Shown here piece after piece: positions 1 to 28,674 of a DNA stretch of 52,407 bases. Numbering within the stretch: position 1 is the stretch's first letter; every line of letters begins with the position of its first letter. Origin of the DNA: a virus. The notes under the pieces were generated by a model. It ran no database searches. It was not told the DNA's origin and saw only the letters and a program-made list of their open reading frames with translations. The stretch lies in UHGV virus genome UHGV-0113213. One strand, given 5' to 3'. Made by a program: the position numbers and the translations under genes.

Positions 1-544
1 TATCCAGCGAATCATTAAAGGGTATCCACACATCCGGCAGCGGCTGTAAAACATACGCGTAAGGCTGCGCCGTCTGATTGGCGTATTCGTGGGCTTCGTC
101 TCTGTATGTCTTAGCTGAATCGGCTGCGCTTGTCGCTGTTGTTGCAGCGTTGGTTGCAGTGGTAGCTGATTGTGATGCTAATTTTGAGGCTGAAATCACA
201 TCTTTGTTGTCGCTAAAAAATTCAACTGCGTCCGCTATTTCTGATTCTTTGCCCTGATAGTAACGCAGTGTTTCGGCTACATCCTGAGCAAGACCATCCA
301 CAGAGATCGAATCTGAAAGCAGGATACTAAATTTAGTTCCAGCCGGAATAGCAGGACTTGCCGCAGGTGTTACTGATAAACTTGTTGCGCTTTTTACCTC
401 TGTGATTGAGAAAATCTGCACCGGATTGCTAATGGCAATAAGGGTGCAACCAACCCTGATCAGAGATAATGCGGCATTGAATTCAGTCCCCGTTCCGGTA
501 ACTGTTTTTCCGCTAACGGCTATCGTGCCTGTTGTGTAAATCAT
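1..544 (-). CDS. Side tail fibre protein, N-terminal ~180 aa (gene runs off the window start)
   Basis: Minus-strand frame open from ATG at 542-544 (GGAG RBS upstream) to window edge; Ala/Thr/Ser-rich N-terminal region typical of lambdoid side fibres; located immediately downstream of J. Confidence 0.55.
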   Translation of the reverse strand, partial: MIYTTGTIAVSGKTVTGTGTEFNAALSLIRVGCTLIAISNPVQIFSITEVKSATSLSVTPAASPAIPAGTKFSILLSDSISVDGLAQDVAETLRYYQGKESEIADAVEFFSDNKDVISASKLASQSATTATNAATTATSAADSAKTYRDEAHEYANQTAQPYAYVLQPLPDVWIPFNDSLD

Positions 545-589
545 CGCAATGACTCCATTATGTTAATTAACCTGGTAATTTTACCATTT

Positions 590-624
590 TGTGATCTGTG
601 TTACATTTCTGGCTTATACAAAAT
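590..624 (+). promoter_or_regulatory. CRP-like palindrome TGTGATCTGTGTTACA (590-605) followed by TACAAAATG element (612-624); candidate promoter region for lipoprotein moron
   Basis: Match to TGTGA-N6-TCACA consensus read directly; same element pair recurs upstream of other morons; -35/-10 not cleanly assignable here. Confidence 0.35.
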
Positions 625-721
625 GTATTTATTGATTTATATCAATATCCGAAATGTTGTTTTGTCGGATATTTAAGCCACCGGATGAACCTGGCGAGCT
701 AACGAGAATGGGGATTCAAAA

Positions 722-970
722 ATGAAAAACATGCTCAAAGTGGTATTATTCGCTGCGGCTGTTGCTCTTACTGGTTGTGCTGTTGACAAAGATGCTGCAT
801 TGCACAACCTGCCAAATAGCGGAGTAATTCCTCAAGAAATTGTCTATGATGCTAATGGTCATCTTGTCTATGACACTGAAAAACTTCCATATACTGGTCA
901 ATGGTGTCATGAACTAGATCACAATATGCGCCGCATCGGTAGCCCGTCGAATTGTGTAGCTAACTACTAA
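722..970 (+). CDS. Small lipoprotein (82 aa), opposite-strand moron between side fibre and J; candidate superinfection-exclusion lipoprotein
   Basis: N-terminal signal peptide with lipobox LTGC (MKNMLKVVLFAAAVALTGCA); own terminator; position analogous to Cor/Llp-type lipoprotein morons near tail fibre genes. Confidence 0.65.
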   Translation: MKNMLKVVLFAAAVALTGCAVDKDAALHNLPNSGVIPQEIVYDANGHLVYDTEKLPYTGQWCHELDHNMRRIGSPSNCVANY

Positions 971-976
971 AAGAAA

Positions 977-1002
977 ACCCCGCGCAAAGCGGGGTTATTT
1001 TT
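977..1002. terminator. Bidirectional rho-independent terminator between lipoprotein moron and J
   Basis: GC stem CCCCGC...GCGGGG flanked by A-run on one side and T-run on the other. Confidence 0.7.
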
Positions 1003-4000
1003 ATGACCACGATCCAGAGCTTCTTGTGACAAGGACTAGGCCTGGTCTCCTTATTGCCGCTGATGATGTATTTGTGTAGTTTTCTGTAACAGTTACGGAA
1101 ACATGCTGAGATGTAATACCTGAAACACAATGAACGGCAACGTCTGACTTGTGGGGCGTTGATGCCGCCCTTTCTATGTCTATAGTCTTTGAATTTCCGT
1201 TAATGTTTATGGTTACGTTAATGCGTCCCGACTGGTTATATGTATAGTAAGCAAGGTTATAAGGTATCATTACATAAACCGTTTTCGATAAAGCAGATGA
1301 TGATGAATCCCAATAATTTTTGGTTACACTCCTGCTACCTGACCCTGATTGCGCAGGGAATGTTGCCTCTGGAATTACTGACATACTCGCAACGTCACCA
1401 ACAAAGGATGTAGCTTCTACAGTGCCTCTGAATTTACCGTCAGTCGCGTAAACAGTACCGTTAAACACACCAGAATTAGCGTATACCGTGCCGCGTACTG
1501 TAACGTTGTTAAATGTAGCCCAGCCATCTTTAACTATTGCCCAACCTTGATCGCTACCGTTCCAATTGTATGACGTTATGACATTGCCTATTTTTGCATT
1601 GTCGATTGAACCGTCTTTAATAAACGCTTCGCGCACATACATTGCGCCGTTAGTGACATAGAAAGGTGTCTGATATGTGCCGTTTGCGGCAGTCATTAAC
1701 ACGAATCGGTCAACAAGGAAAATGCACTGCGATTGAACATCAGTACCGCTGCCAGTGAGGCCAAGTGACATTCCTGTTGCGTATTTCATACCGTTGTTAT
1801 CAGTGGCAATCTTGATTGAATATGACGCATCAACGTTACCTTTAAAATCGGTTAACGCTTTCGATGTTGTCTCGATCGCTGTTGTGTTTCCGTTAACGGT
1901 CACTTTCAATTGATCAATTTTTGTCGATAATGCCTCATCTGCCGTTGACATGGCCTGCGACCATTCCGTGATGCTTGAGTTTACATCGTCGAAAGATGCC
2001 GATATTTGAACAAATTTTTCAGCACTTGATGCCTCGTGAGTTGCGAGCGCCGTTGATATATCTGTTATTTTTGCTGAAATGTTTTCATTAATATTGGCTT
2101 CAAGTGATGCTATAGCCTCCGCGCGGGCCTGTGTTTCGTCTGCTATTGCTGTGTCAATCCTTGCTATTTCCGCTTTTGTTTTTATCTGGCCTTTCCTGTA
2201 TTTTGCCTCAATAACGGTGCTCATCTTGCTTTGCGCTATTGAGTTGTTGATAAGTGCAATCGAGGCGTTTTGCAGACTTGCTTTCGCCTGTTCTATCTTG
2301 TCACTGTTTTTATCAACATCACTTTCAACAGAACCAAGCTCCGCACTGATGCCTGATATTGCCTGGGCGCGAGCGCTTGATTCGTCGGCGATAGCTTGAT
2401 CAAGGCGGCTAACACTGGCATTTGTGCTATTTTCAAGCGTTGTTAAATCAGCTTTAACATCTGTTATTGCGTCGCTTCTTGCCTGCGTTTCATCTGATAT
2501 TGCTTTATCGAGACGAGAAACGCTCGCGTCAGTTTTGTTTTCCAGGCTGCTGATACTGGCGTTAACGTTGCTTATAGCCTCCGTTCTAGCCTGCGTTTCG
2601 GTTGCGATTGCTTTGTCAACGCGGGCGATTTCCCCTTTGGTGCTGGAGTCCATTGCGTTCATTTCTGCTGTGATGGTTTCCAGTGATTCCGCTGTCGCTT
2701 TTTTCTCATCTGCGATAACGTTGTCGATACGGTCAATCTGTGCCTTTGTTTCGTTGCGACCTTTCTTATATTGAGCGGTAAGAGTAACCCGCGTGTTAGT
2801 TTGAGCAAGCGAGTTGTTGATCAGAGCAAGCGAAGCGTTTTGTAAACTTGCTTTTGTCTGTGCCAGTTCGTTATTAACGTTTTCGTTTGATACCTCTAAT
2901 GAGTCTATTCTTACCTCATGTTTGCCTATTCCATCGGCGTTTTCTTCGACTTTTTTATAAAGGTCTTCGGTGTCTTTTTTAAGTGTATCTGTATCAGCTT
3001 TAAGGCCATCTGTAGCTGTTTTAAGGTCGGCGGTTGCTGTTTTAAGGTCGGCGGTTGCGCTTTCTATAATATCAGTGCGATCACCAAGATCCTTAATATC
3101 ACTTACCAATTCCTTAAATTGCTCTGAGTTCATCACGTCTTTGGTGACATAGTCGCTGATTTCATCGAAGTTTTCAGTTGGCTTACCTGACGCCTCAACG
3201 AAGTCTGACACGCCAAAGGCATTGCGCGTGCGCACATAAACGTAATAAGTATGGCCCGTGTTCATTCCACCGAACGTCCACTGATACCCGCGCCCGGTAA
3301 ACTGCGCAGACGTGGTTATTTTTGCAGGATCTGTAATCTGGTTTTTCCCTGCATAGTAGAACTCATACGCTGTATCAGTTGTTAGCGTTGTTTTGCTTAT
3401 CGGGTACACTGTAGCCTGAAATACACCTGGAACCCAGTTAACGCCTATTGGCGAGGCTGGTGCACCAATAACAAGATCAACAATACTTTCAGCGCCCTTC
3501 ATGCCAGTATCATTTCTTCCGCGAACGCCTAACGAATACGCGCCAGCGTCGATGCCATAAAAATCATAACTGTATTTCGTTGTTTCGTAGCTTTTAACAA
3601 CCGCACCATCTGTGTTATATATGCGGATCTCAAAGGTCATGCGATGTGTTGTTGTCTGTGTCTCCCATGTTGCGCGGCATTGAACCGTTTCAGATCCAAT
3701 GTTTACCACCTTCAGATTTTCAATGCTCGGCACGCGGAAGTGATTAAGCGTGTCGTTGTTGATTTCAAATATAGCGCCTTCATCGACTACTGCTTGTTTG
3801 TTCGGGTCATGTTGCGCTGCTTCGATGGTGTACACGCTGTTGTTTTCAGTTTCTGCTACGCTGATGATTCGACATAAAACGGGTTTTGCAGATTCGGTTG
3901 ATACAGCAAAAACAGTACCGTTCCGAATCCATGCCGGGGCTGCTGCCAGTGTGATTTTGTTCCCGTTAACACCAGTGATCTGATGTTTTTTAAATTTGCC

Positions 4001-5578
4001 ATCGCCATCAAGTAAACTGATGGTGTCGCCTGCTGCAATGTATTCTGAATCGACTTTATCGACCGTTATCACTTTCCCATTGTTCGCCACGATACGACCG
4101 CCTAAACGCGCGCCTGCGCGGTTATTGTCGAGGATCTCGATTATATCCCCTGGCGTAAAGTGAATCGCATCACGGGCCATTTTAAACGTGAATTTTGACG
4201 GCTCGCGTTTTGCTGTTTCTATCAGCCATTTACCAGCGCGGTGCGCTTGCCCGCGTGAAGTGCACCCGAACGCCTCCAACGTGGTTTCGTTATAACCATC
4301 ACGGGCGATTAGCTCATCATCTGCCACATACTCTTTTGATTGCTCCCAGCCGTTTTCCGGGTCAGTCCATGATACAATCACGGCGTTGTAGCATTCTGCT
4401 CGGGCGATACTTGAACGAGTGAACGCACCATCAACGACGTTTGCGTTTGTGATGGTGGCGATCGGGTCTTGTGGCGCATCAATCATCACGGTAAGGCGTT
4501 GTCCGTCCCATAACGCGATGCCTCGGAACATCCCGGCGATATTGTCCAGTAAATCGCGGGCGCTCATTTGCTCTGTAATGTAAGCATTAAGCGTCATGCG
4601 AGGCTCAAGGCCACCGTAACCATCATCAACCAACTGGTCGCAGTATCGGGAGAGCGTATATAATGCGCCGTCGTCAACGTCAATATAGCCAGCATGGCGG
4701 GCAAGACCGAAACGCTCGTTTTTAACCAGGTAACGGAAGATCCACGCGGGGTTATTGGTGTACGCCTTCTTGAAGCCGCCAAGCCACAAACCGGAATAAG
4801 TGCGCGTTTCCGGGCTATAGTTATCAGGAACGTCAACAATCAGCCCGCGCAGGTGATAAGTGCGGGTAGGTGTATCAGTGTACTGATCATGATCAATAAC
4901 CGCGCCAGCTACAGCTGTGTGGGGATATGACAAATTATCGTCGATTATTTCGCTGTAACTACTCCATCTCGTATCATTCTGCAATAGATCGCTTGTGCTA
5001 TCGGCCGTTACACGGCGAACGCGAATATCAAACGGCTTTTCATCTGGTGCATTGATAATATGCGCTTCAAGATATTCTCCTCTGATCTTGCCGGGGCCTA
5101 TAGTGACATCTTTAACAAGCGTCCACGTAGAAGAAGATGAAGGCTTGACATCAATCATCATCATAACCGATGTGTTATGTTGATTGCTTTGCTCGTCAGA
5201 TTGTACAAGTGAATCGACGCCGATATTCAGGCGAACGCGCGTAACGTTAGGATCTGATACAGTCCTGATTATTGGGGTATCGTGTTTCACCTGAGCGTTA
5301 ACAATAACGGTTGATTCAATGGCGTTAAAACCGTTAATAGGTGATTGATCTAACGTGCCGTTACGCCACGCCACGCTAACACCAGGGACACTTGTATTGC
5401 CGTTCGCGTCTGTAACAGGTGTATCATTAAGCATCACGCTATTTAATGGCGCTTTTGTATTTACAGGTCCATAAATCGGACCTTCAGAAATAATATCAAG
5501 TACACGATAAAATTGTTTATGGTATAGATTATCGTTAATTAAAGTCGGTGTTTTTGCTTTACCGCCGCCGCTACTCAT
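1001..5578 (-). CDS. J: Tail tip / host specificity protein J (central tail fibre), 1525 aa
   Basis: N-terminal ~830 aa and C-terminal ~300 aa resemble lambda J as recalled (e.g. LSVIDAISEGPI-like start, NGWE, AFGCTSRGQAHRAG motifs); follows I-K-L in lambda order. Confidence 0.9.
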   Translation of the reverse strand: MSSGGGKAKTPTLINDNLYHKQFYRVLDIISEGPIYGPVNTKAPLNSVMLNDTPVTDANGNTSVPGVSVAWRNGTLDQSPINGFNAIESTVIVNAQVKHDTPIIRTVSDPNVTRVRLNIGVDSLVQSDEQSNQHNTSVMMMIDVKPSSSSTWTLVKDVTIGPGKIRGEYLEAHIINAPDEKPFDIRVRRVTADSTSDLLQNDTRWSSYSEIIDDNLSYPHTAVAGAVIDHDQYTDTPTRTYHLRGLIVDVPDNYSPETRTYSGLWLGGFKKAYTNNPAWIFRYLVKNERFGLARHAGYIDVDDGALYTLSRYCDQLVDDGYGGLEPRMTLNAYITEQMSARDLLDNIAGMFRGIALWDGQRLTVMIDAPQDPIATITNANVVDGAFTRSSIARAECYNAVIVSWTDPENGWEQSKEYVADDELIARDGYNETTLEAFGCTSRGQAHRAGKWLIETAKREPSKFTFKMARDAIHFTPGDIIEILDNNRAGARLGGRIVANNGKVITVDKVDSEYIAAGDTISLLDGDGKFKKHQITGVNGNKITLAAAPAWIRNGTVFAVSTESAKPVLCRIISVAETENNSVYTIEAAQHDPNKQAVVDEGAIFEINNDTLNHFRVPSIENLKVVNIGSETVQCRATWETQTTTHRMTFEIRIYNTDGAVVKSYETTKYSYDFYGIDAGAYSLGVRGRNDTGMKGAESIVDLVIGAPASPIGVNWVPGVFQATVYPISKTTLTTDTAYEFYYAGKNQITDPAKITTSAQFTGRGYQWTFGGMNTGHTYYVYVRTRNAFGVSDFVEASGKPTENFDEISDYVTKDVMNSEQFKELVSDIKDLGDRTDIIESATADLKTATADLKTATDGLKADTDTLKKDTEDLYKKVEENADGIGKHEVRIDSLEVSNENVNNELAQTKASLQNASLALINNSLAQTNTRVTLTAQYKKGRNETKAQIDRIDNVIADEKKATAESLETITAEMNAMDSSTKGEIARVDKAIATETQARTEAISNVNASISSLENKTDASVSRLDKAISDETQARSDAITDVKADLTTLENSTNASVSRLDQAIADESSARAQAISGISAELGSVESDVDKNSDKIEQAKASLQNASIALINNSIAQSKMSTVIEAKYRKGQIKTKAEIARIDTAIADETQARAEAIASLEANINENISAKITDISTALATHEASSAEKFVQISASFDDVNSSITEWSQAMSTADEALSTKIDQLKVTVNGNTTAIETTSKALTDFKGNVDASYSIKIATDNNGMKYATGMSLGLTGSGTDVQSQCIFLVDRFVLMTAANGTYQTPFYVTNGAMYVREAFIKDGSIDNAKIGNVITSYNWNGSDQGWAIVKDGWATFNNVTVRGTVYANSGVFNGTVYATDGKFRGTVEATSFVGDVASMSVIPEATFPAQSGSGSRSVTKNYWDSSSSALSKTVYVMIPYNLAYYTYNQSGRINVTININGNSKTIDIERAASTPHKSDVAVHCVSGITSQHVSVTVTENYTNTSSAAIRRPGLVLVTRSSGSWS
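2080..3080. repeat. In-frame tandem repeat region inside J (approx 100-bp units plus short 21-bp direct repeats) encoding coiled-coil heptad-like repeats
   Basis: Repeated DNA units e.g. GCCTGCGTTTC.TC.G.TATTGCTTT at ~2130, 2480, 2590; protein repeats ETQAR..AI and TATADLKTATADLK; internal duplication ASLQNAS(L/I)ALINNS(L/I)AQ. Confidence 0.5.
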
Positions 5579-28612: not shown

Positions 28613-28674
28613 TTTATAACAAAATGGCACTGCCGAAACAATGCCATTTCGTAAACCTTGTGATACAGATCACA
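28613..28674 (-). promoter_or_regulatory. Promoter with near-consensus CRP-like palindrome TGTGATCTGTATCACA (28659-28674), TTTACGAAATGGCA element, -35 TTGTTT (28636-28641), 17 bp, -10 TATAAA (28613-28618)
   Basis: Read on minus strand; CRP-like centre ~61 bp upstream of predicted start. Confidence 0.5.

Follow-up and report, generated by a model that had tools for sequence, protein, structure and literature searches.

The lipoprotein gene and its surroundings

The window, by which we mean the whole stretch of 52,407 nucleotides analysed here (UHGV-0113213), opens with the 5' part of a side (lateral) tail fibre gene on the minus strand (1..543). This gene runs off the window start, is annotated as a tail fibre protein in matching phage records, and is preceded by a ribosome-binding site, GGAG, at 552-555, 8 nt before its ATG at 543-541. 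A second minus-strand gene (1001..5578), which encodes 1525 aa in the list of open reading frames (ORFs), was assigned as the J-like central tail fibre or tail tip gene by its homology to mEp010 J. GpJ Pfam domains were found on the J ORFs that adjoin the identical lipoprotein gene in public assemblies (L011-L014). Between these two genes lies a plus-strand prolipoprotein gene of 82 aa plus stop (722..970), divergent from the fibre gene and convergent with J. We annotate it as a type-C Lpp superinfection-exclusion lipoprotein, an orthologue of Lpp010. The first-pass annotation had described an 82-aa lipoprotein with an LTGC lipobox and two mature Cys residues, placed on the opposite strand between the side-fibre start (543) and the J stop (1001). 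All of these features are present, and the placement was confirmed.

The translation of 722..970 is MKNMLKVVLFAAAVALTGCAVDKDAALHNLPNSGVIPQEIVYDANGHLVYDTEKLPYTGQWCHELDHNMRRIGSPSNCVANY. Its N-terminus through the lipobox is MKNMLKVVLFAAAVALTGC, after which the mature part continues with AVDK. The signal peptide, read from the sequence (residues 1-18; 722..778 on the plus strand), has a basic N-terminus and a hydrophobic core and ends in a canonical L-T-G-C at residues 16-19, which satisfies the lipobox pattern [LVI][ASTVI][GAS]C. Cys19, encoded by 776-778, is the first residue of the 64-residue mature protein and is predicted to be acylated. In the E. coli Lol pathway, lipoprotein sorting is governed by the +2 residue rule. 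Because the residue at +2 after Cys19 is Ala (not Asp), the protein is predicted to be sorted to the outer membrane. The mature part contains two further Cys residues, Cys62 and Cys78, which probably form a periplasmic disulphide. In alignments of the family, conservation is highest in the loop from Cys62 to Cys78, WCHELDHNMRRIGSPSNC (905..955 on the plus strand), and the protein carries the C-terminal motif TGQWC...RxG..NC...Y with both Cys residues. Among 25 homologues, Cys19, PNSGV, TE, TGQW (T58, G59, Q60, W61), R71, G73, N77, C78, and Y82 are invariant, and C62 is nearly so, being kept in at least 90% of them. AlphaFold2 models were of low confidence, with a pLDDT of 57.6 for the full-length protein with the 25 homologues and 52.0 for the mature part alone.

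A Shine-Dalgarno-like GGGGA (710..714) lies 7 nt before the ATG of the lipoprotein gene, and the corresponding motif in relatives is GAGGA. The dN/dS ratio was 0.08-0.14 against five orthologues, with synonymous changes far exceeding non-synonymous ones. These results indicate that 722..970 is a real gene under purifying selection. The antisense ORFs at 673..807 and 746..910 were rejected as shadows of the lipoprotein gene.

The stops of the lipoprotein gene and J are 30 nt apart in the window. As the first-pass annotation had proposed, a bidirectional intrinsic terminator, common to the lipoprotein gene on the plus strand and J on the minus strand, lies between them (976..996), as found by a scan of both strands and by RNA folds. 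Its hairpin has an 8-bp G+C-rich stem with T-runs on both strands, and the fold is stable in both directions (-17.7 kcal/mol, z = -4.9, on the plus strand; -15.1 kcal/mol, z = -2.4, on the minus strand). A terminator is annotated at the equivalent site in mEp010, mEp013, mEp044, and mEp554. An Rfam scan of 1-3000 gave only one sub-threshold match, on this terminator.

The divergent intergenic region of 178 bp upstream of the lipoprotein gene is approximately 95% conserved among six mEpimmI-type phages. It contains a CRP-consensus-like palindrome, TGTGATCTGTGTTACA (590..605), 124 nt from the lipoprotein ATG, and the element TACAAAATG at 617-625, which is conserved as (T/C)ACAAAATG in relatives. 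Both elements had been noted before and are present. In the palindrome, 9/10 core CRP consensus positions match, and as a match in sequence the site is genuine. MagusPhagus, mEp010, mEp013, mEp044, and mEp554 have the site equally far from the ATG, differing by 1-2 mismatches, and the upstream regions of the Seuratvirus homologues have no CRP-like site. A consensus scan of 544-721 revealed no convincing sigma-70 promoter on the plus strand, and likewise none was found upstream in the temperate relatives. The best plus-strand candidate (8/12 with a TG extension, 581-607) is not conserved in mEp010. On the minus strand, the CRP-like site overlaps a possible promoter directed at the fibre gene (604 to 578; GTAACA-15-TAAAAT, TG-extended), so that any target of the site is ambiguous. 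In the virulent phages, a strong promoter of the host type (TTGACT-16-TATATT) precedes the lipoprotein gene by about 40 nt. The earlier description of the gene as a moron is thus established only in part, through the gene's own terminator. A small ORF in the intergenic region (560..676, 38 aa), annotated as hypothetical in relatives, was rejected as a gene: it is AT-rich and without homologues, its annotated limits vary from phage to phage, and in mEp013 it has lost 1 nt to a deletion.

Phage group, family distribution, and pairing with J

A 24-kb stretch of the window (3000-27000) matched only seven phage records, namely mEp021, mEp010, mEp013, mEp044, mEp515, mEp554, and MagusPhagus, with a DNA identity of 85-89% over 77-90% of the query. 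The six mEp phages belong to the mEpimmI (mEp021) group of temperate coliphages, and these matches place the window phage in that group. This group was classed as non-lambdoid by its describers (PMC11893012), and the earlier description of a lambdoid phage was corrected on this point. The identical lipoprotein sequence was found in 191 blocks of public assemblies and also in IMG/VR contigs of approximately 52.5 kb. In the five assembly loci shown, it lies on chromosomal contigs near a prophage end, beside CorA-family or AbgT-family host genes, and the adjoining J C-terminus is 99-100% identical to that of the window.

The lipoprotein is 95% identical to the MagusPhagus protein annotated as 'lipoprotein' and 89-91.5% identical to the orthologues of mEp010, mEp013, mEp044, and mEp554. 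It matched PHROG 12984, also annotated as 'lipoprotein', with E = 2.4e-27 over positions 5-77 of 77, and no model in Pfam, NCBIfam, or PADLOC matched it beyond signal-peptide noise. Of 50,697 phage records searched by tblastn, 44 contain the family. Besides the mEpimmI phages, the carriers are virulent Seuratvirus (CAjan, Seurat, Skure, Greed, and SLUR phages), Nonagvirus (9g), and Dhillonvirus (EP23, PNS1, HH3), plus a few others. The comparative genomics of the J-stf junction suggested at first pass thus yielded homologues at the equivalent position in mEpimmI, Seuratvirus, Nonagvirus, and Dhillonvirus phages. At 50% identity, a profile search across 1.84 billion representative proteins yielded just three clusters of the family, which is thus narrow; a fourth match, to a 4467-aa repeat protein, was dismissed as a chance match. 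Two scans of species-representative genomes gave no copy of the lipoprotein. Among all PDB chain sequences, searched with a family profile to E = 10, only two matches appeared, both at chance level (E 0.46 and 0.83).

The lipoprotein gene keeps close company with J. A convergent J-like ORF ends 28-34 nt from the lipoprotein stop in 29 of 31 IMG/VR loci. The gene order of the window, with J on the minus strand, the lipoprotein gene on the plus strand, and the lateral tail fibre gene on the minus strand, is the same in CAjan and KurtStettler. Convergence with J, with about 30 nt between the stops and a common terminator, was also found in mEp010, mEp013, mEp044, and mEp554.

The C-terminal approximately 140 aa of J (1004..1423 on the minus strand), presumed to be its receptor-binding end, are related to the J ends of LamB-dependent Seuratvirus phages. 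The last 140 residues of the window J are 67% identical to those of MagusPhagus and 46-49% identical to those of GottfriedDienst, WildeMaa, SeppeHuegi, CAjan, and Seurat, and the last approximately 125 residues diverge from mEp010 J. In the alignment, the J ends fall into two classes: class I includes the window, MagusPhagus, and CAjan, and class II comprises mEp010, mEp013, mEp044, mEp554, and KurtStettler. Both classes include phages that are LamB-dependent by experiment. When the IMG/VR loci were sorted by J end, 14 were class I, 15 were class II, and none was of the lambda type. The terminal domain of lambda J has no recognisable relation to class I or class II, and only the preceding linker aligns.

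The BASEL isolates among the 44 carrier records are only GottfriedDienst (Bas21), KurtStettler (Bas22), WildeMaa (Bas23), and SeppeHuegi (Bas24). The BASEL supplementary table gives LamB as the terminal receptor for exactly Bas21-24. The family therefore tracks LamB use exactly within the BASEL collection. From the 46-49% identity of its J end to those of Bas21, Bas23, and Bas24, the window phage probably uses LamB. The relatives with known receptors point to LamB, and not to FhuA, as the receptor concerned. In the BASEL paper, such genes beside receptor-binding loci are treated as cognate superinfection exclusion genes.

The slot between J and the side fibre gene is filled differently in other phages. 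In the OmpA-dependent mEp021 it holds an unrelated lipoprotein (gp81), in an E. coli M15 prophage it holds cor, on the strand opposite to the tail tip (J-like) gene, and in lambda it holds lom between J and stf. The first-pass comparison with the slot of lom/cor-type conversion genes was well founded, since lambda lom and E. coli M15 cor hold the equivalent slot.

Exclusion by an orthologue and comparison with known systems

It has been reported that the plasmid-expressed orthologue from mEp010, gp116 (Lpp010), excluded mEp010, mEp044, mEp554, and lambda, all of which are LamB-dependent (PMC11893012). The same paper on the mEpimmI phages (Front Microbiol 2025, PMC11893012) named these proteins 'type-C' lipoproteins and showed by knockout that the type-C carriers mEp010, mEp013, mEp044, and mEp554 are LamB-dependent. 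However, mEp013 escaped exclusion by Lpp010 in spite of its dependence on LamB (PMC11893012). The challenge phages were class II J-end phages and lambda, and exclusion was scored as plaque formation in a spot test, a format in which adsorption and injection are not separable (PMC11893012). We found no report in the literature of LamB binding, an adsorption assay, or cellular localisation for Lpp010, and none on how a 64-residue lipoprotein silences LamB.

The window protein is 91% identical to Lpp010 over all 82 residues. The two differ at seven residues, of which two lie in the signal peptide and five are among the 64 mature residues (D24E, E39D, I40V, A45G, and N46S), and the last 36 residues are identical. 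They belong to the same family and phage group and have in common the lipobox, the Cys pair, the J-convergent position, and the terminator. They differ in the partner, since Lpp010 goes with a class II J end, whereas the window lipoprotein pairs with a class I (Seuratvirus-like) end. The exclusion function suggested by the first-pass annotation gains support from this orthologue, whose expression from a plasmid kept superinfecting phages out (PMC11893012). Neither the gene family nor its position nor its exclusion phenotype is therefore new, all three having been published in 2025 for the 91%-identical orthologue (PMC11893012). The addition made in this study is modest: in temperate and virulent phages alike, genes of this family are paired, as a conserved two-gene module, with LamB-type J ends of two divergent classes.

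The lipoproteins of the Seuratvirus, Nonagvirus, and Dhillonvirus phages (CAjan gp19, KurtStettler bas22_0021, 9g, and EP23; PHROG 12984) are homologous to the window protein, with 69-77% identity over residues 30-82 and 53-62% overall. They differ from it in the N-terminal third of the mature protein. We found no experiment on CAjan gp19, bas22_0021, or the 9g and EP23 proteins in the literature.

Cor (phi80, N15, HK022, and mEp167; PHROG 1119) is a small lipoprotein of the outer membrane whose gene, like that of the window protein, occupies the slot between J and the fibre gene, and it excludes phages sharing the receptor of its carrier. However, Cor targets FhuA-dependent phages, whereas the relatives of the window protein with known receptors are LamB-dependent. 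Homology to Cor was not found: the match to PHROG 1119 had E = 0.16 and covered only residues 4-22, within the signal peptide, there was no NCBIfam match, and hhalign against E. coli M15 Cor gave a probability of 2.6% on the signal peptide only. Lom of lambda is alike in its slot (J to stf) only. It is an outer-membrane protein of 206 aa, not a lipoprotein, and is encoded on the same strand as J. The Ail/Lom beta-barrel domain of approximately 200 aa gave no Pfam match above noise in the 82-aa lipoprotein. We know of no phage-exclusion role for Lom. The label 'lom/cor-type' is thus supported by function and position, but not by sequence homology to Cor or Lom.

Lpp021 (mEp021 gp81, 'type-A') is likewise a slot lipoprotein that excludes phages using the receptor of its carrier, but it goes with OmpA-dependent phages, and it excludes OmpA-dependent phages in the published assays (PMC11893012). 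The idea that types A and C are distant homologues, which was based on similar Cys spacing, was dropped because hhalign aligned the signal peptide only.

Llp of T5 is reportedly a small disulphide-containing lipoprotein, encoded on the opposite strand beside the receptor-binding protein gene, that inactivates the phage's own receptor. It differs from the window protein in its target, which is FhuA. Structures of Llp are present in the PDB, and Llp was not among the matches of the PDB sequence search with the lipoprotein family. By these comparisons, the window protein appears to be a functional analogue of Cor and T5 Llp and is not homologous to Cor or Lom.

Proposed action on LamB and its alternatives

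We consider it likely that the window lipoprotein makes the cell resistant to phages that use the maltoporin LamB as receptor. In the proposed mechanism, the exported precursor would receive its lipid at Cys19 and lose its signal peptide to signal peptidase II, and the Lol pathway would then carry the lipoprotein to the inner (periplasmic) leaflet of the outer membrane. Here the mature protein of 64 residues, to which a Cys62-Cys78 disulphide probably lends stability, would act on LamB, and the tail tips of incoming phages would then be unable to use LamB productively. The outer-membrane location, direct binding to LamB, the disulphide, and the timing of expression are inferred. The lipoprotein gene and the receptor-binding C-terminus of J would travel as a two-gene receptor module of convergent genes with one common bidirectional terminator, and a phage would therefore always carry a block that matches its own receptor. 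In a lysogen, competing LamB-dependent phages would be excluded; during lytic growth, progeny would not be wasted on the LamB of infected cells and debris.

Most simply, the target of the lipoprotein would be LamB and not a particular tail protein. Action via LamB is suggested because lambda was excluded although its J end is unrelated to class I or II, and action via the receptor is also suggested because one lipoprotein family pairs with two divergent classes of J C-termini. Since mEp013 escapes, the block does not amount to LamB simply being lost or wholly occluded; the escape speaks for an altered LamB and against one that is removed or completely covered. By analogy, the action of T5 Llp on FhuA may serve as the closest mechanistic model.

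The mEp013 escape also bears on a different account, in which the lipoprotein permits adsorption to LamB and blocks a later step, either the trigger for DNA ejection or the passage of DNA across the periplasm and inner membrane. Such an escape is more easily squared with a subtle effect on triggering than with masking alone, and the published spot test cannot tell adsorption from injection. However, Ala at +2 predicts the outer rather than the inner membrane, the gene is linked to the receptor-binding J end and not to tape-measure or ejection genes, and the spectrum tested so far follows the receptor. We regard a block at a later step as rather unlikely. Somewhat less doubtful, though still the less probable view, is that the main benefit is lytic and not lysogenic: LamB would be masked on the infected cell and on debris, and new virions would be spared inactivation. 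Protection of progeny in lytic growth is said to have been proposed for T5 Llp. This view gains from the strictly virulent Seuratvirus, Nonagvirus, and Dhillonvirus phages, which keep the gene at the equivalent place, and from promoters, as virulent copies have the strong TTGACT-16-TATATT promoter and temperate copies have no obvious constitutive one. The temperate phages, however, keep a distinct and highly conserved upstream region, which suggests regulation separate from the late operon. No finding speaks directly against a mainly lytic benefit, which is compatible with the preferred explanation, as the molecular action is the same and only the selective advantage differs.

Two further accounts fare worse. 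The gene could be cargo for host fitness or virulence of the Lom or Bor type (adhesion, serum resistance), with any effect on phages incidental. The small lipoprotein Bor of lambda is a known example of such cargo, and lambda has lom in the equivalent slot. However, the window protein has no similarity to any Pfam or NCBIfam family, Lom/Ail included, its orthologue Lpp010 has a direct exclusion phenotype, gene presence follows receptor use, and the gene is also found in virulent phages, to which host virulence is of no benefit. We consider this account very improbable. That the 82-aa ORF is a chance frame in the spacer encoding no protein could be argued from its shortness and from the lack of a curated family match, but this reading is effectively refuted by the conservation data and has a negligible chance of being correct. 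The dN/dS of 0.08-0.14 and the full-length conservation of the family across distinct phage groups speak against it, as do the intact signal peptide and lipobox, the invariant Cys19 and Cys78 with the nearly invariant Cys62, the gene's own ribosome-binding site and terminator, and the activity of the cloned orthologue.

For annotation, the gene can be named, where most records say "hypothetical protein" or "lipoprotein"; its 91%-identical counterpart has a published exclusion phenotype. Together, the lipoprotein and the J C-terminus predict that the window prophage uses LamB and that it confers on its host resistance to LamB phages of the lambda and Seuratvirus types, a prediction of use in host-range prediction and in the choice of phages for cocktails. 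The silencing of LamB by a 64-residue lipoprotein is a tractable structural question, and one that predates the window.

The CRP-like site at 590-605 raises a further, attractive idea about regulation. The synthesis of LamB requires cAMP-CRP. If the lipoprotein were also under cAMP-CRP control via this site, the block would be made only when the maltose regulon, and hence LamB, is induced; we consider this improbable. Were it true, a receptor-masking gene would be co-regulated with its target receptor, and CRP control would keep any cost to maltodextrin uptake small. The lipoprotein would also represent a third, structurally unrelated route, after Llp and Cor, to silence a porin or transporter from the periplasmic side.

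Exchange of the J end and contents of the slot

The receptor-binding end of the J gene (1004-1423, minus strand) was compared with the locus L002 (2555-3004) from outside this genome, and was found to be Seuratvirus-like, that is, of class I. The phages mEp010, mEp013, mEp044, and mEp554 have class II J ends, yet all of these phages share the lipoprotein at about 90% identity. The J end has evidently been swapped independently of the adjoining lipoprotein gene. The centre of J (2000-3200, residues ~830-1230) is a long, internally repeated stretch resembling a coiled coil (for example, ATADLKTATADLKTATDGLKADTDTLKK). The number of repeats differs between the J proteins of the window and mEp010, which leads to staggered BLAST alignments.

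The space between the tail fibre and J genes can also hold other genes. In the prophage of E. coli M15 (L007 2000-3463), which shows 98% DNA identity with positions 481-646 of the window, this slot is occupied by cor. Its tail tip gene is followed by two additional small genes, and its fibre gene adjoins an inserted IS903B. In mEp021 (L003 1762-2915), the slot contains an unrelated type-A lipoprotein of 72 aa followed on the same strand by a 311-aa 'virion structural protein'; the slot is therefore variable in both content and size. In two IMG/VR viral contigs of about 28 kb (L045 and L046), the match was confined to residues 29-82 of the lipoprotein, and no convergent long ORF was found within 200 nt downstream of it. 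The arrangement at these two loci is different or degraded.

Candidate regulatory elements upstream of the lipoprotein gene and elsewhere in the window

On the minus strand at 578-604, overlapping the CRP-like site of the slot, the sequence GTAACA-15-TAAAAT plus a TG extension (a 9/12 match) resembles a promoter facing the tail fibre gene. This candidate promoter could restart transcription of the fibre gene after the J terminator. Two symmetrical elements were read closer to the lipoprotein gene, namely the palindrome TTGAT-N4-ATCAA (632-645) and the inverted repeat ATATCCGA-N10-TCGGATAT (647-672), which precedes the ATG of the lipoprotein gene by about 50 nt. In the alignment of six phages, the palindrome has a single variable position (column 107, C in mEp044), and the arms of the inverted repeat have two (column 120, A in the five relatives; column 122, A in mEp013). 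Either repeat could be an operator or form a hairpin in the 5'-UTR. The same region contains a 38-aa ORF (560-676, plus strand), which is listed as a hypothetical protein in related records (MagusPhagus CDS0020, mEp010_117, and others). Its annotated limits vary from phage to phage and its counterpart in mEp013 has a 1-nt deletion, so it is probably not a gene.

The 52.4 kb contain nine sites that deviate from the CRP core TGTGA-N6-TCACA at no more than one position (590, 7523, 28659, 31685, 34923, 38326, 39933, 43184, and 46618); base composition predicts about 1.7. The match at 28659 is perfect, most of the nine share TGTGAT...ATCAC, and about six are intergenic or at gene boundaries. These sites could be bound by CRP, or could instead be operators of a phage regulator.

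Copies of the Seuratvirus-type cassette

In virulent Seuratvirus phages, the lipoprotein gene is preceded by a near-consensus sigma-70 promoter, TTGACT-16-TATATT, about 40 nt from the ATG (promoter region at 2343-2426 in both L004 and L005), which suggests that the lipoprotein is expressed early in infection by the host RNA polymerase. The Seuratvirus-type cassette, including this promoter, was also found in a prophage of E. coli O68:H12 strain 97.3 (L006 2607-3104), where it adjoins a TipJ-family gene. The lipoprotein start codon of this copy is ATA rather than ATG, and RefSeq annotates a 165-aa ORF starting at an upstream GTG. The prophage copy may be a start-codon mutant.
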